Shown piece by piece: positions 2,976 to 35,166 of a DNA stretch of 64,000 nt. The stretch lies in NCBI GenBank assembly GCA_937903605.1, contig CALCZC010000025.1:67275-131274 (forward strand). The letters run 5' to 3'. The stretch is from an uncultured bacterium (GTDB lineage: Bacteria > Patescibacteriota > Patescibacteriia > Magasanikbacterales > GWA2-37-8). The notes under the pieces were generated by a model. It was not told the origin of the DNA. It did no database searches and was given only the letters and a program-made list of their open reading frames with translations. A program made the position numbers and the translations under genes. Every line of letters starts with the position of its first letter. Position 1 is the stretch's first letter.

Positions 2976-3040
2976 ACAAGAGGTTTGACAAGAGTTGTAA
3001 TTATTGGAATAATTAAGCAAATAATTAAAATTAAAAAAAT

Positions 3041-4096
3041 ATGAAATTACTTGTTTGTGGGGGCGCAGGCTTTATCGGATCCAATTTTATCCGTTATATG
3101 CTCAATAAATATCCGGATTACAAAATAGTCAATTATGACAAATTGACCTATGCCGGTAATTTGGAAAATCTAAAAGACATAGAAAATAATCCCAATTATA
3201 CTTTTGTTCAAGGTGATATTGTGGATTTGGAAAATTTGGATAAAGTTGTTAAAGAATATAGTATAACTCATGTAATAAATTTTGCGGCGGAAACCCATGT
3301 GGACAGATCTATTCATGGCGGCTGTAAGGACTTTGTCTTGACTAATACTTTGGGGGTACAAATGATTTTGGATGCTGTTCGCAATAATAAACTGGAAAAA
3401 TTCGTTAATGTTTCCACAGATGAAGTTTATGGATCTTTGGAGCTGGATGAACCAAGTCGTTTTACCGAAAGTACTCCTATAGAACCAAATATGCCATATG
3501 CAGCGGCCAAAGCCGGTGGAGATCTGATGTGTCGGGCTTATTTTGCCACACATAAAGTTCCGGTTGTAGTTACTCATTGTTCCAACAATTACGGACCATA
3601 CCAATTTCCGGAAAAATTGATTCCATTTTTTATTTTTAAACTTTTTAAAGGTGAAAAGGTTCCGGTTTATGGCGATGGGCTGAATGTGCGCGATTGGATT
3701 CATGTGGTTGATCATGCGCGAGCTTTGGATTTATTACTACACAAAGGTGTTCCCGGCGAGGTTTATAATATTGGTGTGGATAATGAAAGAAATAATTTGG
3801 AAATTACCAAAATGATTTTGAAATTGATGAATTTGGGTGAAGACAGGATAGAATATATTACCGATAGACCAGGGCACGATCGTCGTTATGCCATTGATGC
3901 GAGTAAAATAACCGCCCTTGGCTGGTCTCCGGAATATAACAAAGAAAAATTTGAACAAGGCCTTCAAGAAACCATACAGTGGTATTTGAACAACCAGCCC
4001 TGGGTGGAAAATCTTTATCAAAAAAAGAAAGATGAAATGAATAAATTTCAAAATGATTTACAAAGATCACAAGAAAAAATGAAATCTTCGACATAA
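3041..4096 (+). CDS. rfbB: dTDP-glucose 4,6-dehydratase
   Basis: N-terminal GGAGFIGSN Rossmann motif, a YxxxK active-site region, and 'YDKLTYAGNLENL' typical of RmlB. Confidence 0.9.
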   Translation: MKLLVCGGAGFIGSNFIRYMLNKYPDYKIVNYDKLTYAGNLENLKDIENNPNYTFVQGDIVDLENLDKVVKEYSITHVINFAAETHVDRSIHGGCKDFVLTNTLGVQMILDAVRNNKLEKFVNVSTDEVYGSLELDEPSRFTESTPIEPNMPYAAAKAGGDLMCRAYFATHKVPVVVTHCSNNYGPYQFPEKLIPFFIFKLFKGEKVPVYGDGLNVRDWIHVVDHARALDLLLHKGVPGEVYNIGVDNERNNLEITKMILKLMNLGEDRIEYITDRPGHDRRYAIDASKITALGWSPEYNKEKFEQGLQETIQWYLNNQPWVENLYQKKKDEMNKFQNDLQRSQEKMKSST

Positions 4097-19204: not shown

Positions 19205-19223
19205 AAAAACCAAACAATAATTT

Positions 19224-19258: not shown

Positions 19259-19418
19259 TTCTTTGTTTTAGCAAAAATAAGTTGATTTATTTATTAGTAT
19301 AAATTTTAGTATTGCATTCGTATTATTAGTAAAATTAGTATATTGGTATCAATCAAAAAATTCAGTTGAATTTTTTAGGGAAAGAGAGTAAAATAAAGGC
19401 ATTAGTTGTTATAAAATT

Positions 19419-20402
19419 ATGAAGAAAAAAGTAAAAAACAATCAAGTTATTATTTATCAAGCCAAAAATGGAGCGATTGAGCTTCGGGGTGATAATTCCC
19501 GTGAGACTTTTTGGGCCACACAAGCGCAAATAGCGCGGTTGTTTGATGTTACTCCTCAAAATGTGACATTGCACTTAAATAATATCTATAAAGACAAAGA
19601 GCTTGAAATGTCGACAACTTGTAAGGAATCCTTACAAGTTCAAATCGAAGGGAAAAGAGAAATTAAAAGAACCGTTAAGTTTTATAACCTTGATGCGATT
19701 ATTGCTGTCGGCTATCGTATAAATTCCGTCTTGGGAACAAATTTTCGTATTTGGGCGACAAAGACTCTTCGTGGATATATTATCAACGGTTTTGTTATAA
19801 ATCGTAAACAAATATCGGTTCATTATTCGCAATTTTTGGAAGCTGTAGAAAATATCAAACAAATATTACCTGGAGCCGGAAATATAGATCAAAATAGTGT
19901 TTTGGAATTGATTTCCGCTTTTGCCAATACTTGGTTATCTCTGGAAGCTTATGATAAAGATAAAATGGTCAGCACCGGAAATACCAAAAAATCAGTAGTG
20001 ATAACCGCGGACAAATTAAAAAAAGCGTTGGGTGATTTCAAAAACGAGTTATTGAAGAAAGGCGAAGCAACGGAAATTTTCGGACAAGAAAAACACAGAG
20101 ATGCCGTAGGAAGTATTGTCGGTAATGTGATGCAATCGTTTGGCGGTAAATCGCTTTACGCAACCGTAGAAGAAAAAGCGGCCCATCTTCTTTATTTTTT
20201 GGTTAAAGATCATCCGTTTACAGACGGAAACAAACGAAGCGGTGCTTTCGCTTTTGTTTGGTTTTTGAAAAAAGCCGGTTTGCTTGATTCTTCCAAAATC
20301 ACTCCGCCCGCGCTCACGGCTATAACGCTTTTTATCGCTGAAAGCAATCCAAAACAAAAAGATAAGATGATTAAATTAGTTTTACAATTATTAAAAAAAT
20401 GA
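19419..20402 (+). CDS. RhuM-family N-terminal domain fused to Fic/Doc (death-on-curing) toxin-like domain
   Basis: RhuM-like N-terminus (…FRIWATKTLRGY…). Doc/Fic motif HPFTDGNKRSGA near the C-terminus. Confidence 0.75.
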   Translation: MKKKVKNNQVIIYQAKNGAIELRGDNSRETFWATQAQIARLFDVTPQNVTLHLNNIYKDKELEMSTTCKESLQVQIEGKREIKRTVKFYNLDAIIAVGYRINSVLGTNFRIWATKTLRGYIINGFVINRKQISVHYSQFLEAVENIKQILPGAGNIDQNSVLELISAFANTWLSLEAYDKDKMVSTGNTKKSVVITADKLKKALGDFKNELLKKGEATEIFGQEKHRDAVGSIVGNVMQSFGGKSLYATVEEKAAHLLYFLVKDHPFTDGNKRSGAFAFVWFLKKAGLLDSSKITPPALTAITLFIAESNPKQKDKMIKLVLQLLKK

Positions 20403-21754: not shown

Positions 21755-22342
21755 ATGAAATTAACACCAAAAATATTAAAAGCTATTAATTTTGCTAGCA
21801 AAAAGCATAAAAAGGGGGTTAGAAAAGGGGACAAGGGGTTGCCTTATATTAGCCACTGTTTTGCAACTGCCTGGATCTTGAACAGCTTTACCAAAGATGA
21901 AGATGTGATTGTCGCCGGTTTGCTTCACGATGTTATCGAAGATGTCTTGGGGCCCAAGGGTTACAAAATACTTCAAGAAAAATTCGGTCAGCGCGTGGTT
22001 GATATTGTGAAGGGTGTTACCGAAGACAAAGATCCCAACAAAAAAGAAGATGAAAAGCCATGGATTGAAAGAAAACAAGATTATCTTGATCATCTCAAAA
22101 AAGATAGCAAGGAATCCATGATGGTAAGTACAGCGGATAAAATACACAATTTGCAGTCCATGCGCGATGCTTATCGCGAACAAGGGGAAAAATTATGGAA
22201 GAATTTCAACTCTCCGGCGGATAAAAAGCTTTGGTTTTATGAAGAGGTTTATAAGATAGTAAAGGGAAAATTGAGGAATAAAATTGTAGAAGAGTTAAAT
22301 AAACAAATTAAAGGAGCAAAATATGAATTTCATTTATATTAA
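21755..22342 (+). CDS. HD-domain small (p)ppGpp/alarmone hydrolase-like protein (RelA/SpoT HD-type, paralog 1)
   Basis: …HCFATAWIL…AGLLHDVIEDV… matches the SpoT-type HD motif. 195 aa. About 70% identical to the product of 27353-27931. Confidence 0.75.
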   Translation: MKLTPKILKAINFASKKHKKGVRKGDKGLPYISHCFATAWILNSFTKDEDVIVAGLLHDVIEDVLGPKGYKILQEKFGQRVVDIVKGVTEDKDPNKKEDEKPWIERKQDYLDHLKKDSKESMMVSTADKIHNLQSMRDAYREQGEKLWKNFNSPADKKLWFYEEVYKIVKGKLRNKIVEELNKQIKGAKYEFHLY

Positions 22343-24686: not shown

Positions 24687-24717
24687 AAACACTTCACCCT
24701 AGGGTGAAGTGTTTTAA
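24687..24717 (+). terminator. family-2 hairpin terminator (perfect palindrome variant)
   Basis: aaacacttcaccctagggtgaagtgtttt. Confidence 0.7.
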
Positions 24718-24802
24718 TTTTGTTTTATATTAGCAAAAATTTGTTTCTTGAGTTTTTTAGGGAAAAGGAGTAAAATAAATGCATCTTATTTAACAAAAAT
24801 TT

Positions 24803-25465
24803 ATGAAATTAAAGGAGGTTCCCGTCGTCGATAGACCGCGGGAAAAGTTGGAAAAATATGGGGTAAATAGGCTCAGTGACAGCGAGCTTATGGCTATTTT
24901 GATTCGCACCGGGATTGTTGGTAAAAATGTTGTGGAGCTTTCCAAACAAATTTTGAAAAAAATTAAAAAACTCGGTTTGGAAAAAATGGAAATGAAGGAT
25001 TTATTGGAAATAAAAGGTTTGGGAAAAACCAAGGCCGGGCAGATATTGGCAAGCTTGGAAATCGGTCGCCGTTTTCTTCAAAACAAAAAATCCGAATTAA
25101 TACTTTCTCCGCAAGATGTTTGGAACGAAATGAAAGACTTGCGCGACAGTAAAAAAGAACATTTTGTTATTTTTTATCTAGACACGCAAAATCAAATTAT
25201 TAAAAGAGAAATTATTTCCGTCGGCACGTTAAACGAAAGTCTGATTCATCCGCGAGAAGTTTTTGAACCGGCTGTCAGATATTCCACGGCGCAAATAATC
25301 ATGGCGCACAACCATCCGTCCGGGAATTTGGAACCGTCGCCTGAAGATGTCGCAGTTTCAAGACGTTTGATAGACGCCGGAAATTTATTGGGGATTGAAG
25401 TTTTGGATCATATTATCATAACAAAGGACGGTTTTAAAAGCATGAAAGAATTAAAAATGTTATAG
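24803..25465 (+). CDS. radC: RadC-like JAB/MPN domain protein
   Basis: JAMM motif HNHPSGNLEPSPEDV and an N-terminal HhH-like region. Confidence 0.85.
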   Translation: MKLKEVPVVDRPREKLEKYGVNRLSDSELMAILIRTGIVGKNVVELSKQILKKIKKLGLEKMEMKDLLEIKGLGKTKAGQILASLEIGRRFLQNKKSELILSPQDVWNEMKDLRDSKKEHFVIFYLDTQNQIIKREIISVGTLNESLIHPREVFEPAVRYSTAQIIMAHNHPSGNLEPSPEDVAVSRRLIDAGNLLGIEVLDHIIITKDGFKSMKELKML

Positions 25466-25468
25466 GTT

Positions 25469-26089
25469 ATGTCAAATCACTATACAGAAAAATTAAAAGC
25501 GGCTTTAAAAAAACGAGTTTATGTTTACATAGACGCGGCTAATTTGGAACGCTCGGTACAGGATATGTGGGTAAACTCCAAAGATATTCCGGATAATTTA
25601 AAAGAAAATAAAGCGGAAGAGTTGCACTATCGCGTAGATTATCAAAAATTTAAAGCTTATTTTGACAAAATTTCCGATTTAAAAGAAATAAAATTTTATT
25701 CCGCCGATTTTAATAATGAAAAGCACAGTAAGTTTTTATGGTTTTTAAGTAAAATATTAAAATTTAAATTAGGAACAAAACCTTTGAAAGAATATACTGA
25801 CCACACTCCTGAAACTCCGCACCGAAAAGCAAATTTTGACGTAGAACTGGCGGTAGATGCTACTTATCATTTGAATAAATATGACACTTTGGTTTTGTTT
25901 TCAGGAGATTGTGATTTTGAATACCTGATCAAATTTTTGAAGGGTCATGGTAAAGTGGTTATTGTTTTTTCACGGGTCGGACATGTGGCCAAAGAACTTC
26001 CGCCAGCAAGCAGTTATTATTTTGACATAGTGGACTTTAGACAGGAATTGTTAAAAATAGAAACTAAAACGCAAAAAATCCCGCGATAA
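25469..26089 (+). CDS. NYN/LabA-like (PIN-fold) nuclease-domain protein
   Basis: VYVYIDAANL…LVLFSGDCDFEYLIKFLKGHGKVVIV matches the NYN Asp pattern. Starts 4 nt after radC. Confidence 0.7.
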   Translation: MSNHYTEKLKAALKKRVYVYIDAANLERSVQDMWVNSKDIPDNLKENKAEELHYRVDYQKFKAYFDKISDLKEIKFYSADFNNEKHSKFLWFLSKILKFKLGTKPLKEYTDHTPETPHRKANFDVELAVDATYHLNKYDTLVLFSGDCDFEYLIKFLKGHGKVVIVFSRVGHVAKELPPASSYYFDIVDFRQELLKIETKTQKIPR

Positions 26090-26405
26090 AGCGGGATTCT
26101 GCAGTTGATTACAAGTGATACTGCTATCACCTGTAATTCAACTATACATTAATTTTACGATTTTGTCAATGTTATCCACAACGGAAAAAGTACCTAAGAT
26201 TGTTGTAATACTAAATAAACAAAAAACCCAATCGGTTAGATTAGGCGCTTTGTTGAAGTAGCGTCTTAAAAAGTGGTTATCTGCGGCTTAAGTCCCGAGT
26301 TCCTCGGGGGAACACCACAGCGCTCTCTAAGCTATTATTGCATACTTCAAGATTAATATACCACAAAACCCCTTTTTCGCCAATATCAGCTTATCCACAG
26401 GTTTT

Positions 26406-26435
26406 TTGTCATCCTGAACTTGATTCAGGATCTCC
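26406..26435. repeat. family-1 short unit (gtcatcctgaacttgattcaggatctccc)
   Basis: Palindromic ATCCTGAA-cttga-TTCAGGAT core. Confidence 0.6.
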
Positions 26436-26473
26436 CTTTAAGTCTAATTTCGCCTGTTCAAGGCGGATTTTTT

Positions 26474-26506
26474 AACACTTCAGCCTGTAGGTTGAAGTGT
26501 TTTTGT
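26474..26506 (+). terminator. family-2 hairpin (no annotated CDS immediately upstream)
   Basis: aacacttcagcctgtaggttgaagtgtttttgttt. Confidence 0.55.
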
Positions 26507-26795
26507 TTGGGTTGAATTAGCGAAAATTTATTTTTGACAAAATCACCAAAATATACTATACTACTAATAGTTACAATCTAAAATAATTATTTATCAAGAG
26601 CGCAGGTAGTTTCTTCGCCGAGGCGGAGAACTTAGGGATCTAGCCCAAAATCTGCCGGCAACCTCTGTGGCTGACTGCCAAAGAAAGGTGCCAATTCTAG
26701 CCCGAATAGGGAAAGATGATCGTCGATTTTTTGTTTCTTGAGCAAAAAGCATCTTTCCCACCCGGGAAAGATTTTTAATTTTTAATAATGAATAT

Positions 26796-27173
26796 ATGAT
26801 AACTGAAAATTTTAATACTTATACTTTTAAATTTTTATCAGGGGTTAAAAATAAAATGACGGAGTTTACCGAAGAACCGGATCTTATTGTTTATGAATCA
26901 ATAGGATTAGCCACGGCTGGCAGTGTAGAACATGCAATTATTCTTGCTTTACAACATAAAGAAGGTTTTTTAAAAGAGGCAGTAGGGTATAGAGTCAGAG
27001 AAAATAATGATATTATTAAAATTCTCAGCAAAGCCACGGGTAAAGATTATGTCGGAGTGGAGTTTTATAAGTTAAAAAGAAAAAATCAAGAAGAATTAAG
27101 TGGTATAGGTAAGTTTTTTGCGGACAATTTGAACAAGAATGTCCTGGAAGATCAAAAAAAGATGAAAAATTGA
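26796..27173 (+). CDS. hypothetical protein
   Basis: 125-aa ORF. No motif recognised. Confidence 0.35.
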   Translation: MITENFNTYTFKFLSGVKNKMTEFTEEPDLIVYESIGLATAGSVEHAIILALQHKEGFLKEAVGYRVRENNDIIKILSKATGKDYVGVEFYKLKRKNQEELSGIGKFFADNLNKNVLEDQKKMKN

Positions 27174-27352: not shown

Positions 27353-27931
27353 ATGAAACTAACTCCCAAAATACAAAAAGCCATCAATTACGCCAGTCGT
27401 TTGCATGCCAAACAGATAAGAAAAGGGGATAAAGACCTGCCTTATGTCAGCCATTGCTTCACCGCGGCTTGGATTCTCAATGAATTTACCAAAGACGAAG
27501 ATATTATCGTGGCCGGATTGCTTCACGATGTACTGGAAGATGTTCCGGGTTATGGTTACGAAAGGATGAAAAAAGATTTTGGCGCGCGAGTGGCGAAAAT
27601 AGTCGCCGGTGTTACCGAAGATAAAGATCCCAATAAAAAAGAGAAAGAGAAGCCGTGGATTGAAAGAAAACAGAAATATCTCGAGCATCTCAAAAAAGAT
27701 AGCCGGGAATCCATGATGGTAAGCGCAGCGGATAAAATACACAATTTGCAGTCCATGCGCGATGCTTATTGCGAACAAGGGGAGAAATTGTGGAAGCATT
27801 TCAATGCTACAAAAGAGGAATCTCTTTGGTTTTATGAGCAAGTTTATAAGATTATTAGGGGGAAATTGAGGAATAAAATTGTGGGGGAATTGGGGAAACA
27901 ATTGGCAGGGGCAAAAAAGGAATTTAAATAA
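27353..27931 (+). CDS. HD-domain small alarmone hydrolase-like protein (paralog 2)
   Basis: …HCFTAAWILNEFTKDEDIIVAGLLHDVLEDV… matches the SpoT-type HD motif. Paralog of 21755-22342. Confidence 0.75.
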   Translation: MKLTPKIQKAINYASRLHAKQIRKGDKDLPYVSHCFTAAWILNEFTKDEDIIVAGLLHDVLEDVPGYGYERMKKDFGARVAKIVAGVTEDKDPNKKEKEKPWIERKQKYLEHLKKDSRESMMVSAADKIHNLQSMRDAYCEQGEKLWKHFNATKEESLWFYEQVYKIIRGKLRNKIVGELGKQLAGAKKEFK

Positions 27932-28076: not shown

Positions 28077-28175
28077 AATTTTTCGCAATTTTTCGTATTT
28101 TTATAATTCAAAAATTGGTATTGTAAAAAAGGGGGAAAGAGAGTAAAATATAGACAACTTATTTAATAAAAATTT

Positions 28176-29105
28176 ATGAAAAGTTATTATCGTATAATGC
28201 TTGGCAAGGGTAGTGTTTATGCCAAAGAAGCAAGGTTAGAAAATTTTATGGGCGCCGGATGGCTTGGTGATATTGATTTAACAAATGAATTACCAGAAAG
28301 TCGAGTTGAATTCAATAAGAAATTCATACCTGTTTATTTAAAAAAACATCCTGATGCAAAGAAAATGTCAGCGGCCCTTGCTTGTGGTATGTTATACACG
28401 ATCGCAAAAGGTATTGTTATTGGTGATATTGTTTTATGTCCGGATGGGTCAGGTAATTATTATTTCGGAGAAGTCATTGGTGATTATCAATATGTGTCGG
28501 GAGTAAACTTACCGCACCGTCGTGCTGTGAAATGGTATTCCAAAATTATTCCCAGAGAAGAAATGAGTCAAGCTTTAAAATATTCCACTGGCGCCATTGG
28601 TACAGTTAGCAATATAACCGATCATGCTTCTGAATTAGAAAAATTGATATCAGGTAATGTTGAAAGTCCGATTGTTGTGACCGACGAGTCAATTGAAGAC
28701 CCAAGTGTATTTATGTTAGAGAAACATCTAGAGGATTTTTTGGTACAAAATTGGAACAATACTGAATTGGGTAAGAATTATAATATTTATGAAGAAGATG
28801 GTGAAATAGTGGGGCAACAATATCCTAGCGATACTGGTCCAATAGATATTTTGGCAATTAGTAAAGATAAAAAAACACTTTTGGTAGTTGAGTTAAAAAA
28901 AGGACGCGCAAGTGATGTGGTGGTCGGCCAAATTCAAAGGTACATGGGTTATGTAAAAGACGAATTAGCAGAAAAAAATCAAGAAATTAAAGGGGTTATA
29001 ATTGCTTTTGAAGATGATATTAAAATTCGCCGTGCTTTATCGGTTGCAAATAACATCGATTTTTATACTTATAAAATTGATTTTAAACTTGAAAAAAATA
29101 AATAA
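28176..29105 (+). CDS. YhcG/DUF1016-like PD-(D/E)xK nuclease-domain protein
   Basis: C-terminal …GPIDILAISKDKKTLLVVELKKGRASDVVVGQIQRYMGY… is a D…ExK motif resembling YhcG. It is the first gene of a tightly spaced 15-gene array. Confidence 0.5.
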   Translation: MKSYYRIMLGKGSVYAKEARLENFMGAGWLGDIDLTNELPESRVEFNKKFIPVYLKKHPDAKKMSAALACGMLYTIAKGIVIGDIVLCPDGSGNYYFGEVIGDYQYVSGVNLPHRRAVKWYSKIIPREEMSQALKYSTGAIGTVSNITDHASELEKLISGNVESPIVVTDESIEDPSVFMLEKHLEDFLVQNWNNTELGKNYNIYEEDGEIVGQQYPSDTGPIDILAISKDKKTLLVVELKKGRASDVVVGQIQRYMGYVKDELAEKNQEIKGVIIAFEDDIKIRRALSVANNIDFYTYKIDFKLEKNK

Positions 29106-30688: not shown

Positions 30689-32890
30689 ATGAATAAATTA
30701 AAAGTTAAATTAGAAAATTGTTACGGAATAAAAAAGCTTGAACACGAGTTTGATTTTTCTAATTTTAAAACTTTTGTTATCTATGCACCCAACGGCGTAA
30801 TGAAGACATCATTTGCAAAAACCCTTAGCGATATTGCAAAAGGAGAAAAACCCTGTGATCAAATAGATGATACTTTAACACCAATTTTTAATTTTTTAAT
30901 TGATGATTCTGAAAATCAAATCCAATCAGAAGAAATATGTGTTATAGAGTCATACAACAAAAAAGCGTTTGATTCTGAAGATAAGATTCTTACGCTTCTA
31001 GCAGACGACGAGACCAAAAAGGAATATTTGGCAATATTTAACGAAATTGAATCACTTAAAAAAGCTTCTCTTCCTGGATTAAAAAAAATATCAGGCAGTA
31101 GTAACTACGAATCTGAAATTACAGAAGCATTTTCTAATCTTGATAAGAAAAATATTTTTGAAATTTTTGAGGCCGTTTTAAATGACATTGAAGCATCGAA
31201 AGATTCATTTGAATTTAAATATAACGATGTTTTTGATAAAGGTGGAAAAGTTAAAAAATTTCTGGCAGATAATTTTGCATTATTAAAAGAGTACATTGAA
31301 AAATACAATGATCTGATTAGTAAGTCTACTTTTTTTGCAAAAAATGCCAACCATATTTTTGGAACAACGGAAGCAAAAATTCTTGGTAAGTCGCTTGAGG
31401 GCGATGAATATTTTACTGCTGGGCATAAATTAGTATTAAAATCACATGGGGATGTATCTGCTAAAAATAAATTATCAGAAATAATTGATGAGGAAATTGA
31501 AAAAGTTTTTAATGATAAAGACCTGAAAGATATTTTTGAAAAAATCGATAATTTGCTCAATACTAATAAAGAACTTCAAGCATTTAAGAAGATTATTGAA
31601 AGAGACAATTCAATTTTATTGAGATTAAATAATTACGATGCTTTTAGAAGAGAGGTGTGGTTTAGTTTTTTAAAACAAATTGAGACAAGCATAAAATCAT
31701 TAGTTGAATTATATAATCAGAAAAAGGTTGATTTAGAAAGGATTATACAAAAAGCAAAGGACAGTCAGTCACAATGGGAAAGTGCTATTAAAGAATTTGA
31801 AAACAGATTTGTTAATAATCCATTTACTCTTGAAATTCAAAATAAGGCGGACGCTGTATTAAACGAAAAGACACCAGTAATTGATTTTAAATTTCAAGGA
31901 AAAGATATCGAAAGAAACAATTTGATAGAAAATGTATTGAGCCAAGGAGAGAGACGAGCTTTTTATATTTTAAATGTTATTTTTGAGATTAAATCTCGGC
32001 AGCTACAAAACAAAAAAACATTATTTATTATTGATGACATAGCGGACTCGTTTGATTACAAAAATAAATATGCAATTATTGAATATTTAAATGATTTATC
32101 CAAAGAAGATAATTTCTATTCAATAATTTTAACGCACAACTTTGACTTTTTTAGGACACTTCAATCAAGAATCTTGCAAGATAATAAGTGGAACTATTCT
32201 TTTATAGCAGAAAAACTAACAGATGAAATTAAACTAATTAAAGCAGGTAGTAAAAATGTTACTGACCCATTTACTAACTGGAAAGCAGGTCTTAATAACA
32301 ACAAAAAACATTTAATTGCTTGTATTCCTTTTGTGCGAAATTTGATTGAATTTAAAGATGGACGAAATGATGGATATAAGCTTCTAACGCACACTCTTCA
32401 TAGAAAATCTTTGGACGAAACTATTAAAGCAACCCCAGATATTTCAATTGCTGATCTACAAGCACCGTTTTCGAGTGTTGTGTCTGGTGTTGCATTTACA
32501 TTTACAGACACAAATGAAAAAATTATTGATGTAATTGAGGAACAGATAGCAGTGATAAAAAATGACAGAAATACCGATTCAATTGTTCTAGAAGATAAAA
32601 TTATTTTTGCTATTGGAATAAGATTGAAAGCAGAAGAATATATGTGGTCGAAGGTTACAAACCAAGATCTAATAAACGGATCGCAAACAGGTAAGCTGTT
32701 TCAGCGATACAAAGATCAATTTAAACAAGATCCGACTCATGTTGAAGCTATAAAAATCTTAGAAAGCGTAAATATAATGACTCCTGAGAACATACACCTG
32801 AACTCTTTTATGTATGAACCAATTTTAGATATAGGCATAGATGAGTTAAAGAGTTTACACGATAAGGTTTGCAATTTAATGAATAATTAG
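30689..32890 (+). CDS. ABC-type (Rad50/SMC-like) ATPase with ~400-aa helical insertion and C-terminal R-x3-E…H module; RloC-like anticodon-nuclease candidate
   Basis: Degenerate Walker A APNGVMKTS. ABC signature LSQGERRAF, Walker B LFIIDDIADSFD and H-loop ILTHNFDFF about 400 aa downstream. C-terminal GIRLKAEEY…(39 aa)…H. Lies between hsdM and hsdS. Confidence 0.5.
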   Translation: MNKLKVKLENCYGIKKLEHEFDFSNFKTFVIYAPNGVMKTSFAKTLSDIAKGEKPCDQIDDTLTPIFNFLIDDSENQIQSEEICVIESYNKKAFDSEDKILTLLADDETKKEYLAIFNEIESLKKASLPGLKKISGSSNYESEITEAFSNLDKKNIFEIFEAVLNDIEASKDSFEFKYNDVFDKGGKVKKFLADNFALLKEYIEKYNDLISKSTFFAKNANHIFGTTEAKILGKSLEGDEYFTAGHKLVLKSHGDVSAKNKLSEIIDEEIEKVFNDKDLKDIFEKIDNLLNTNKELQAFKKIIERDNSILLRLNNYDAFRREVWFSFLKQIETSIKSLVELYNQKKVDLERIIQKAKDSQSQWESAIKEFENRFVNNPFTLEIQNKADAVLNEKTPVIDFKFQGKDIERNNLIENVLSQGERRAFYILNVIFEIKSRQLQNKKTLFIIDDIADSFDYKNKYAIIEYLNDLSKEDNFYSIILTHNFDFFRTLQSRILQDNKWNYSFIAEKLTDEIKLIKAGSKNVTDPFTNWKAGLNNNKKHLIACIPFVRNLIEFKDGRNDGYKLLTHTLHRKSLDETIKATPDISIADLQAPFSSVVSGVAFTFTDTNEKIIDVIEEQIAVIKNDRNTDSIVLEDKIIFAIGIRLKAEEYMWSKVTNQDLINGSQTGKLFQRYKDQFKQDPTHVEAIKILESVNIMTPENIHLNSFMYEPILDIGIDELKSLHDKVCNLMNN

Positions 32891-34011: not shown

Positions 34012-35166
34012 ATGGTTGAATTCGACTCAATCTCTGAATTGTTTGTTAATATAAAAAATGATTTATTATCAGATATTGATAAAAAGAGTATTGCTTTACT
34101 TTATGCTTTTAATTCTACTGGTAAGACAAGGCTTTCTATTGAGTTTGATGAATTAAACGAAAATGATAATGGTTATATTAAAGTACTATCTTATAATGCT
34201 TTTTTAGAAGACCTGTTTGTCTGGGATAATAAGAACCTTGTCTTAAATTTTAGTCCGGATGATTGGCGGATAAGATTTATTCAGGATCAAGGTTTAGAAA
34301 ATAAAATTGTAGAGAATTTTAAATTATTTACTAATTCAAAAGTTGAGCCTATCTTTGAAATTGAAACACATAGAGCAGAGCTCGATAAATTTATATTAGA
34401 CAAATCTAAACTAGGTGGAAATAAGATAGGAAAAATTTCTTTTTTTATTGCTTCAGGAGATGGAAAAAATAAAGATAGCATAAAAATTTCTAAAAGTGAA
34501 GAAAGTATACTGATATGGTCTGTTTTTTATTCTATTTTAGAGATTGTTATAGAAGAATTAAATACACCAGAAGAACATCGTTCAACTAATCTTTTTAATC
34601 ACCTTGAATATATTGTAATAGATGATCCTGTTTCTTCGATCGATGATGAAAGAATTATTTCTTTAGCAGTAAAATTATGTAGGACTATAAAGTTAAATGA
34701 AAATAGAAAAATAAACTTTTTAATAACCACACATCACGCTTTATTTTTTAATGTTTTATTTAATTCTTTCAAAAAATTTCAAAAATCTGATGTAAAAAAA
34801 TATTGTTATATTTTATCAAAAAATGGTAATATTTTTATATTAGAAAGCCAGAAAGATGATTCACCGTTTGCATATCATATTTTAGTTAAAAATAAGCTTA
34901 AAGAAGCAATAAAAAATGGAAGTCTTGAAAAATACCATTTTAATTTATTTAGAACTTTATTAGAAAAAACGGCAAATTTTTTAGGATATACTGATTGGGG
35001 TGAGTGTATTTATAAAGAAGAAAACAGAGAAGAAGTTAAAAGACTTATTAATTTATATAGTCATAGCAAATTATCAGAATTGGAAAGTGGAAGTTTAAGT
35101 AATGCTGATAAAGAGTTGTTTGCAAATACTTTTAATTCTTTTATGGAAGATTTTAAATATAAATAA
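34012..35166 (+). CDS. PrrC-like anticodon nuclease candidate (ABC-type ATPase N-domain + C-terminal R-x3-E…H module)
   Basis: Walker A FNSTGKTRL, Walker B YIVIDDPVSSIDD, H-loop LITTHHALFF. C-terminal FRTLLEK…(37 aa)…YSHSK. Sits between hsdS and hsdR, as in the prr locus. 384 aa (PrrC is about 396). Confidence 0.55.
   Translation: MVEFDSISELFVNIKNDLLSDIDKKSIALLYAFNSTGKTRLSIEFDELNENDNGYIKVLSYNAFLEDLFVWDNKNLVLNFSPDDWRIRFIQDQGLENKIVENFKLFTNSKVEPIFEIETHRAELDKFILDKSKLGGNKIGKISFFIASGDGKNKDSIKISKSEESILIWSVFYSILEIVIEELNTPEEHRSTNLFNHLEYIVIDDPVSSIDDERIISLAVKLCRTIKLNENRKINFLITTHHALFFNVLFNSFKKFQKSDVKKYCYILSKNGNIFILESQKDDSPFAYHILVKNKLKEAIKNGSLEKYHFNLFRTLLEKTANFLGYTDWGECIYKEENREEVKRLINLYSHSKLSELESGSLSNADKELFANTFNSFMEDFKYK

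Follow-up and report, generated by a model that had tools for sequence, protein, structure and literature searches.

The stretch of DNA analysed here (the window, 64,000 nucleotides of contig CALCZC010000025.1 from an uncultured bacterium of the Magasanikbacterales, Patescibacteriota) carries a radC gene followed closely, on the same strand, by a gene for an NYN-domain protein. The NYN gene faces a predicted small structured RNA gene on the opposite strand, with which it overlaps at its 3′ end (Table 1). This RNA accompanies NYN at every orthologous locus surveyed, 39 of which lack RadC, whereas RadC lies beside NYN in one narrow lineage. On balance, we favour an explanation in two layers, in which RadC and NYN are merely juxtaposed while NYN and its antisense RNA form a conserved mobile module. 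The antisense RNA gene is very probably real, and we are confident that RadC and NYN do not constitute a dedicated module.

In the window, the predicted RNA overlaps the final ~23 nt of the NYN open reading frame (ORF), stop codon included, and folds with a minimum free energy of −30.8 kcal/mol (z score −7.6). Its promoter agrees with the consensus at 11 of 12 positions, and at 39 loci the two hexamers keep their place. A common minus-strand architecture with compensatory changes is found at about 39 loci: a −35 element TTGACA or TTGACT, a spacer of 16–18 nt and a −10 element TAnnnT, often with an extended TG, are followed after ~7 nt by a 9 bp hairpin with a GYAG loop, the linker A-U-N-A-A-Y-N-G-C-R-G and a G+C-rich terminator hairpin with its U-run. 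At 36 of 39 loci the RNA reaches 13–52 nt into the coding sequence of NYN, and in about half of them the NYN stop codon is a TGA within the linker complement, GCAGTTGA. Among the window and three relatives (L001, L002 and L048), the ~110 nt past the NYN stop codon are nearly invariant and the proteins differ by 15–20%, the DNA being more conserved here than the coding sequence.

The loci were obtained from a survey of NYN in one genome per GTDB species, which gave 47 loci; 41 of these hold orthologues (54–85% identity) and come from Magasanik-, Doudna-, Uhr-, Yanofsky- and Kuenenbacteria, Paceibacterota and others. The RNAalifold consensus of 39 sequences contains 21 base pairs, 17 of them with double compensatory changes. 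Paired cells make up 95.8%, compared with 39–46% in slid controls, and none of 500 shuffles attained any of the observed measures. The alignment contains 122 G·U cells and about 15 A·C cells, and this excess assigns the RNA to the minus strand. A structure in the 3′ untranslated region (UTR) on the plus strand was considered and rejected, since the G·U cells would then be A·C mismatches and the U-run and both hexamers are on the minus strand.

A covariance model of the small RNA (R1) gives a single match of 53–85 bits in each of 42 loci (the window and 41 others), three of which were not used to build it; every one of these matches is on the minus strand, at the 3′ end of NYN. It also matches all six loci of a group of close relatives (L139–L144, 79 bits) and reaches 25 bits beside an NYN gene of 39% identity. 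In 86 RadC loci (~0.5 Mb) it matches only at L048, the NYN-bearing one, with no match in the other 85; the association with NYN is exclusive. Two divergent NYN subfamilies, represented by a 208-residue protein after RadC in L109 and a 250-residue paralogue in L139, have convergent RNAs of the same design and different sequence, each with a TTGACA promoter, a hairpin and a terminator, that abut the NYN stop codon.

The RNA was also compared with known families and dismissed as a member of any of them, with no Rfam 15 match at gathering or E-value thresholds. At gathering thresholds only the DUF3800-V RNA passes in the window, at a site other than that of the small RNA; an E-value search of the small RNA region (26050–26850) returned weak terminator-like matches only (Leu_leader, 22.2 bits; istR, 19.4 bits; RsmY, 16 bits), and the copy at locus L019 has no Rfam match at E ≤ 1. 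Neither Rfam 15 nor the NYN full-text literature searched contains an antisense RNA partner for a LabA-like NYN protein, and the 2017 motif paper of Weinberg does not mention NYN. Carriage by phages was rejected, as a collection of viral contigs yielded no relative of NYN and no copy of the RNA motif.

Directly upstream of the −35 element lies a 9-mer resembling a DnaA box. Of 39 loci, 12 have it in perfect form 1–7 nt upstream of this element, in either orientation (TTATCCACA or TGTGGATAA), and four more have it with a single mismatch. Judged by these positions, it may act in these genomes as a regulatory site close to promoters. A perfect copy of TTATCCACA also occurs at 26391–26399, just upstream of the −35 element of the DUF3800-V RNA, and some RadC start codons have the motif ~45 nt upstream of them; copies outside the window include those in L050 (2948–2956), L051 (2963–2971) and L139 (~3027–3035).

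Table 1. Features of the NYN–RNA locus and of the RadC–NYN transcription unit in the window.
Feature	Position	Strand	Description
NYN gene	25469-26089	+	206 aa; LabA-like, PIN-like fold; predicted RNase
Small RNA (predicted, ~68 nt)	~26134-26067	-	Convergent with NYN; ends predicted
Small RNA promoter (predicted)	26169-26141	-	-35 TTGACA 26169-26164, 17-nt spacer, -10 TATAGT 26146-26141
Small RNA 5′ hairpin	26133-26112	-	
Small RNA linker AAUCAACUGCAG	between 5′ hairpin and terminator	-	Conserved, single-stranded
Small RNA terminator hairpin (predicted)	26100-26075	-	Followed by U-run; contains NYN stop codon
DnaA-box-like 9-mer TTATCCACA	26172-26180	+	Perfect; 2 nt upstream of small RNA -35
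RadC gene	24803-25465	+	220 aa; HhH-type UPF0758_N and RadC-type JAB domains, JAMM intact
Terminator-like hairpin	24687-24714	+	After upstream SNase gene; upstream border of RadC-NYN transcription unit
RadC promoter-like site	24748-24776	+	TTGAGT-17-TAAAAT; within repeated leader sequence
Two terminator-like hairpins	26449-26467, 26474-26501	+	Likely end of RadC-NYN transcript

Both ORFs are present and intact where the first-pass annotation had placed them, and its domain calls, RadC (JAB) and NYN, are borne out by Pfam. The NYN protein matches PF01936 (4.5e-22; 79.6 bits, gathering score 24.2), and its acidic residues Asp22, Asp124, Asp130, Asp147 and Asp149 are unchanged across 25 orthologues. 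The AlphaFold model (predicted local distance difference test score 87.8) has a PIN-like fold and, in Foldseek, matches the LabA-like protein 2QIP (E = 1.8e-10) as well as 5YAA, the NYN domain of MARF1 (1e-4); score, fold and acidic residues place the protein in the LabA-like NYN group (COG1432). It shares the PF01936 domain, the fold and the conserved acidic active-site residues with 2QIP, cyanobacterial LabA and MARF1, but sequence identity to them is only ~20%. It is its family membership that suggests ribonuclease activity. As of a 2017 review, nuclease function had been studied in no bacterial member of PF01936 (PMC5499597).

RadC matches PF20582 (UPF0758_N, 1.7e-23) and PF04002 (RadC JAB, 6e-42) and scores 235.8 bits against the NCBIfam equivalog NF000642 (cut-off 180). 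The N-terminal UPF0758_N domain, the equivalog score and the JAMM signature (E...HxH...S..D) identify it as a canonical RadC; the JAMM residues Glu152, His169, His171, Ser179 and Asp182 are unchanged across 28 orthologues, and a profile match to PDB entry 2QLC has an E value of 2.9e-39. Homologues of both proteins belong to metagenome-assembled genomes of Patescibacteria (the candidate phyla radiation).

The conservation of the RadC–NYN adjacency was examined from the sides of both genes. Genomes and metagenomes alike were sampled by pattern seeding, with a ceiling of 80 loci, and the neighbour frequencies are accordingly estimates. Within ±5 kb of NYN, RadC was found by tblastn among the 41 orthologous loci solely in the two closest relatives, L001 and L002, and a Pfam tally places it as the upstream neighbour of NYN in two of 46 loci. 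The remaining neighbours of NYN are diverse and include HsdM, HsdR, an EcoRI-like methyltransferase, cyclophilin, ProRS, GatA, GyrA, RecA and RNase Y. Clustering of 517 ORFs from the 47 loci disclosed no conserved protein neighbour.

From the RadC side, eight orthologue look-ups (61–76% identity) and at least 80 metagenome loci were used, with 76 non-redundant downstream neighbours. Among the eight look-ups, NYN lies downstream in P0143 alone (76% identity); in the others, the downstream gene is Phd (with or without ParE), an N6_N4 or HsdM methylase, DUF3800 or a type IIG enzyme, and a serine recombinase, a type IV secretion system coupling protein or Fic is found upstream. The 76 downstream neighbours comprise the Phd antitoxin (18), HsdR-type proteins (~18), N6_N4 methyltransferase (11), N6_Mtase (7), Fic (4) and NYN (2), with restriction–modification (R-M) genes totalling ~30–36; the upstream neighbours include Fic (10), AbiEii (5) and AAA_14/DUF4143 (4). 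The two loci with NYN downstream are L048 and L109, the latter with the divergent NYN, and the other 74 have none. RadC as the conserved neighbour of NYN is thus ruled out by the tblastn and Pfam tallies.

Adjacency is confined to a clade made up of the window, L001, L002, L048 and L139–L144, with RadC proteins 73–100% identical, together with the independent case L109. Even within this lineage it is polymorphic. In L139–L144 (RadC 92–96% identical) the order is HD_4–RadC–NYN–hsdM–hsdS; in L059, the RadC of which is 96% identical to that of the window, it is HD_4–RadC–hsdM and NYN is absent. In nucleotide sequence, L059 is homologous to the window up to the stop codon of RadC and no further. 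A simple insertion or deletion marking the module border was sought by comparing L059 with L139 and the window and was rejected: with homology ending at that stop codon and unrelated hsdM genes beyond it, no clean boundary could be obtained. Adjacency does not extend across divergent lineages, and the pair is a lineage-specific juxtaposition. The first-pass annotation had named absence of the adjacency from all other genomes as the outcome that would sink its proposal; this is not strictly what the neighbourhood survey returned, as a few close relatives share it, in a pattern of shared descent. No RadC–NYN pair, and no module joining NYN with toxin–antitoxin genes and an antisense RNA, was found in the literature searched for these combinations.

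The slot after RadC varies in content: in this defence-island setting, it is occupied by Phd–ParE, R-M genes or Fic and rarely by NYN. An earlier remark that RadC-like proteins are frequent in mobile or defence contexts agrees well with these ~76 loci, in which the neighbours are mostly R-M, Phd/ParE, Fic and AbiEii genes. RadC proteins of mobile DNA have been noted among toxin–antitoxin, anti-restriction or restriction genes (PMC5512222). We compared the window RadC with such mobile-element RadC-like JAB proteins, namely YeeS, YkfG and YfjY of E. coli CP4-type prophages (beside CbtA/CbeA) and the polyvalent proteins of conjugative elements. The surveyed RadC genes are likewise flanked by Phd/ParE, Fic, AbiEii and R-M genes. 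The E. coli prophage versions consist of the JAB domain only, whereas the window RadC is full-length and canonical, with a helix–hairpin–helix (HhH) domain at the N terminus and a score above the equivalog cut-off. The canonical full-length RadC of this patescibacterial lineage is found nearly always among defence genes (76 loci, L048–L138; e.g. L050, 3001–4342, and L095, 4001–6928), and the trio RadC–Phd–ParE recurs behind different upstream genes.

In the window itself, RadC and NYN are probably co-transcribed. The stop codon of RadC and the ATG of NYN are separated by 3 nt (GTT), not by 4 nt as first annotated, although the genes are indeed tightly spaced on one strand. Such spacing is uninformative by itself, since 51% of same-strand neighbour pairs in the window are separated by 10 nt or less (median 9 nt). 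Co-transcription is made plausible by the terminator-like hairpin and the promoter-like site ahead of RadC and by the lack of a terminator between it and NYN, the first on the plus strand downstream being those at 26449–26501. The transcript likely ends there, and its 3′ UTR would therefore be antisense to the small RNA. The description of the genes as co-operonic is thus plausible for this genome but does not hold for a conserved pair. The leader before RadC recurs before two other island genes, at 19378–19426 and 28133–28181 (86% identity to the latter).

The arrangement of NYN and its RNA resembles the 3′-overlap type I toxin–antitoxin pairs of B. subtilis (bsrG/SR4, txpA/RatA and yonT/SR6), which are mobile and island-associated: convergent protein and small RNA genes overlap at their 3′ ends, and the RNA has a strong promoter, its own terminator and a terminator stem-loop within the overlap. 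In bsrG/SR4 the terminator loop of SR4 makes the first contact, and the RNA both promotes decay of the toxin mRNA and blocks its translation (PMC3834814); for txpA and yonT, silencing that depends on RNase III is essential (PMC3531473). The predicted RNA provides the cis-antisense gene overlapping the protein gene, as expected of type I, at 42 of 42 loci. The NYN protein departs from that type in size and character, as known type I toxins are hydrophobic membrane peptides of fewer than 60 residues (PMC3919570) and the 206-residue protein here is a soluble, enzyme-like, predicted RNase; the host, a member of the Patescibacteria, differs as well.

SymE/SymR of E. coli provides an earlier example of a protein under antisense-RNA control that targets RNA and not membranes. 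SymR overlaps the 5′ end and the translation start of symE, and SymE has an AbrB-like fold, whereas the overlap here is at the 3′ end and the protein has an NYN fold. The protein neighbours of NYN are unrelated across loci and thus include no conserved adjacent protein antitoxin of the type II kind. Type III systems (ToxIN, CptIN and TenpIN), to which a role in abortive infection belongs, likewise combine an endoribonuclease with a dedicated small structured RNA. In these systems, however, the RNA is a toxin-processed tandem-repeat array upstream on the same strand; no repeat array is present beside NYN, which is accompanied by a single convergent antisense gene. The occurrence of NYN inside or abutting hsdR/hsdM at four loci (L008, L012, L024 and L034) recalls the latent RNases PrrC and RloC of type I restriction operons, but these belong to an unrelated family, most NYN loci have no R-M neighbour and control here is apparently exerted by RNA and not by the R-M complex.

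We tentatively regard NYN with its antisense RNA as a type I toxin–antitoxin-like module, a reading to which we give somewhat less than even credence. In such a module, the small RNA would be made constitutively from its near-consensus σ70-type promoter and would pair with the NYN mRNA at its 3′ end, over 13–52 nt of coding sequence and the 3′ UTR. Pairing would hold NYN expression down through duplex-dependent mRNA decay or interference, as in the 3′-overlap type I pairs. When the RNA is depleted, the NYN endoribonuclease would accumulate and degrade cellular or invader RNA. The module would be mobile and, in the lineage of the window, would have been inserted right after RadC and be read from the RadC promoter. 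We infer the expression of the small RNA, the direction of its regulation, the toxicity of NYN and a role in defence from the arrangement and context of the genes.

A toxin–antitoxin-like or defence role is favoured because NYN with its RNA shares the slot after RadC with Phd–ParE, because R-M genes are enriched around it and because it shows no synteny. NYN lies beside or inside R-M operons in about a fifth of the species, and R-M genes occupy the −1/+1 positions in ten of 87 cases, compared with ten of 299 further away. In the four loci named above (L008, 2744–7270; L012, 2672–7340; L024, 772–3124; L034, 3217–6720), NYN and its antisense RNA are found between or abutting the hsdR and hsdM genes of type I operons, with gaps of 1 to −4 nt. 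The same role is also favoured by presence/absence polymorphism and by clusters of NYN paralogues, several of which occur together in L033, L034, L040 and L139. A still broader proposal is possible, if doubtful: NYN and its RNA may represent an unrecognized class of RNA-controlled toxin or abortive-infection module with an enzymatic toxin, widespread and mobile in Patescibacteria and often in or beside R-M operons, in which the DnaA-box-like 9-mer could couple release of the RNase to replication or DnaA status.

Several points weigh against these readings. The promoter, transcription start and terminator of the RNA are all predictions from the DNA, as are the toxicity and catalytic activity of NYN. 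Known type I toxins are, again, small hydrophobic peptides (PMC3919570) and not soluble proteins of 206 residues. An antisense RNA that overlaps the 3′ end can stabilize its target instead, as GadY does for gadX. About three quarters of the NYN loci have no recognizable defence neighbour, which would also fit a housekeeping RNase fine-tuned by an antisense RNA. The conserved linker, moreover, is superfluous for pairing in cis.

We consider it rather unlikely that NYN is neither a toxin nor a defence gene but a housekeeping RNase, for example in tRNA or rRNA maturation, the expression of which the antisense RNA only fine-tunes or terminates. The identity of 54–85% across many candidate phyla, unusual for a toxin, would suit such a role; at 50% clustering, only 17 representatives have E ≤ 1e-30. 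Housekeeping genes are common among the neighbours (ProRS, GatA, aminoacyl-tRNA synthetases, GyrA, RecA and RNase Y), tRNA genes lie near NYN at several loci, and published neighbourhood analyses link bacterial NYN domains to tRNA and rRNA processing (PMC5499597). The complete lack of synteny across species is nevertheless unusual for a core gene, and the location in or beside R-M operons at ~20% of loci, the polymorphism between near-identical strains and the paralogue clusters all speak against it. So does the dedicated antisense RNA with a strong promoter, which is conserved in three divergent NYN subfamilies.

Alternatively, the small RNA could act on the NYN protein and not on its mRNA, as a type III-like inhibitor or preferred substrate recognized through the linker AUCAACUGCRG and the GYAG loop. 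We regard this as improbable. Linker and loop are conserved in 39 loci even where they are non-coding, which cis-antisense pairing does not require, and NYN is a predicted endoribonuclease. Pairing of the linker in trans with the translation-initiation region of NYN was rejected, the duplex energies at 17 loci being no better than those of shuffled sequences; the linker may therefore be a protein-recognition site in a type III-like variant. However, type III antitoxin RNAs are same-strand upstream tandem repeats and the RNA here is a single convergent copy. The linker differs in the two divergent NYN subfamilies while the convergent architecture is kept, which fits the logic of cis-antisense control, and in many loci it partly encodes the C-terminal tail of NYN, which may add to its conservation.

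A partnership of RadC and NYN as enzymes of nucleic acids in this one lineage, for instance on incoming DNA or RNA together with R-M enzymes, in a young operon with no peptidase step, seems to us very unlikely. The pair is kept with a gap of 3–14 nt in at least five species-level genomes, with an R-M system (EcoRI-like methyltransferase, HsdM or TaqI) invariably following it. RadC has an HhH DNA-binding domain and is a predicted nuclease (PMC3239186), and two independent RadC-to-NYN adjacencies among 76 loci exceed the naive random expectation. Common residence in defence islands nevertheless explains both the retention and the recurrence, as defence genes flank RadC at most loci and R-M genes are over-represented beside NYN; tight spacing is the norm in this genome, and near-identical RadC genes are polymorphic for the presence of NYN. 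The retention of the pair in at least eight contigs with different flanks, together with the divergent NYN after the L109 RadC, still leaves room for a weak functional link.

The proposal from which the analysis started, a dedicated effector module in which the RadC JAB metallopeptidase proteolytically activates or de-represses the co-operonic NYN RNase, has the 3 nt gap, shared strand and lack of an intervening terminator, intact catalytic motifs in both proteins, adjacency retained in L001, L002, L048 and L139–L144 despite different flanks and the divergent NYN of L109 in its favour, but is highly improbable and already largely refuted by the neighbourhood survey: adjacency is found at two of 46 NYN and two of 76 RadC loci, L059 has a nearly identical RadC and no NYN, the 39 loci without RadC have an NYN that is just as conserved and is accompanied by the same antisense RNA, an alignment of 25 orthologues shows no conserved pro-peptide-like extension in NYN, and a ubiquitin-like, E1 or E2 partner is absent. 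There is also reason to doubt its premise of a peptidase role for RadC, as the RadC-type JAB domain has been argued to be a nuclease domain or one that processes nucleic acids, without a groove for a ubiquitin tail (PMC3239186, PMC5512222).

The survey thus removes a tempting but unsupported model of RNase activation by a JAB peptidase, and the RadC–NYN pair as originally described is an ordinary lineage-specific juxtaposition of genes. Bacterial LabA-like NYN proteins gain their first strictly conserved genetic partner, a structured and covarying antisense RNA that is absent from Rfam and represents a new RNA family; if it functions as proposed, it would constitute a new variant of antisense-controlled toxin modules, extend type I-like toxin control to an enzymatic RNase and provide Patescibacteria with another type of defence or addiction module. 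To our knowledge, Patescibacteria mostly lack CRISPR; R-M systems are frequent in the sampled patescibacterial loci. The residence of full-length canonical RadC in R-M and toxin–antitoxin islands provides a contextual clue to its function.

The surrounding sequence is divided into two parts. The window up to ~17.8 kb contains housekeeping genes (glycosyltransferases, RecR, YbaB and DnaB), and the region from ~18.3 to 41 kb is an island of defence and mobile genes. Its genes include, in this order, Bro-N (PDC-S13), RhuM and Fic (PDC-S23), HD_4, a RusA-like protein, a secreted SNase, RadC and NYN, where the PDC designations, here and below, are PADLOC candidates. After NYN come a second HD_4, a PD-(D/E)XK protein (PDC-S02) and a type I R-M system (HsdM, PDC-S46, HsdS, AAA_13 and HsdR), followed by HEPN AbiU2, an ADP-ribosylglycohydrolase and another PD-(D/E)XK nuclease. 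Inside the type I operon, the PDC-S46 match is a 733-residue protein (30689–32890) that aligns end to end with the candidate (6.7e-231), and the AAA_13-like protein is a 384-residue fragment (34012–35166). The two HD_4 paralogues (21755–22342 and 27353–27931) flank the RadC–NYN region and are 71–80% identical over ~500 nt; HD_4 is also found directly upstream of RadC in the close relatives L059 and L139–L144.

Repeated elements separate the cassettes of the island. A 58 nt palindromic, terminator-like hairpin (AACACTTCAsCCTnnAGGkTGAAGTGTT; family D2) occurs in six copies between cassettes, at 19221, 20549, 23644, 24682, 26470 and 27933; the hairpin ahead of RadC (24687–24714) belongs to one of these copies. 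A second hairpin, GTCATTCCTGCG..CAGGAATCC, is present in three copies in intergenic regions, and a shared promoter/leader (family D6) precedes three genes, including radC (19378, 24760 and 28133). These repeated intergenic modules give a cassette-like organization that could promote shuffling.

Two further RNA elements lie between NYN and the second HD_4 gene. A full-length DUF3800-V RNA (RF02964; 26254–26349, minus strand) scores 72.9 bits against a gathering threshold of 37.4 and has its own promoter-like site (26383–26355, minus strand) and terminator-like hairpin (26246–26226). The DUF3800-V motif is defined by its association with DUF3800 genes, none of which was detected in the window by a single tblastn query. 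It was considered as a part of the NYN module and rejected, being absent from 12 other NYN/RadC loci. An aptamer resembling the S-adenosylmethionine (SAM) riboswitch SAM-I (26588–26722, plus strand) scores 38.8 bits, under the gathering threshold of 44.4, and has an insertion of ~26 nt in one stem. It is preceded by a near-consensus promoter (26534–26562), is followed by a terminator (26751–26772) and lies upstream of a 125-residue ORFan (26796–27173), the sole database match of which is itself; it is located in a defence island beside a SAM-dependent type I R-M system. At another NYN locus, on a contig from Magasanikbacteria (L004), a group I intron (RF00028, 57.1 bits; 2994–3202) is found amid tRNA genes upstream of NYN.

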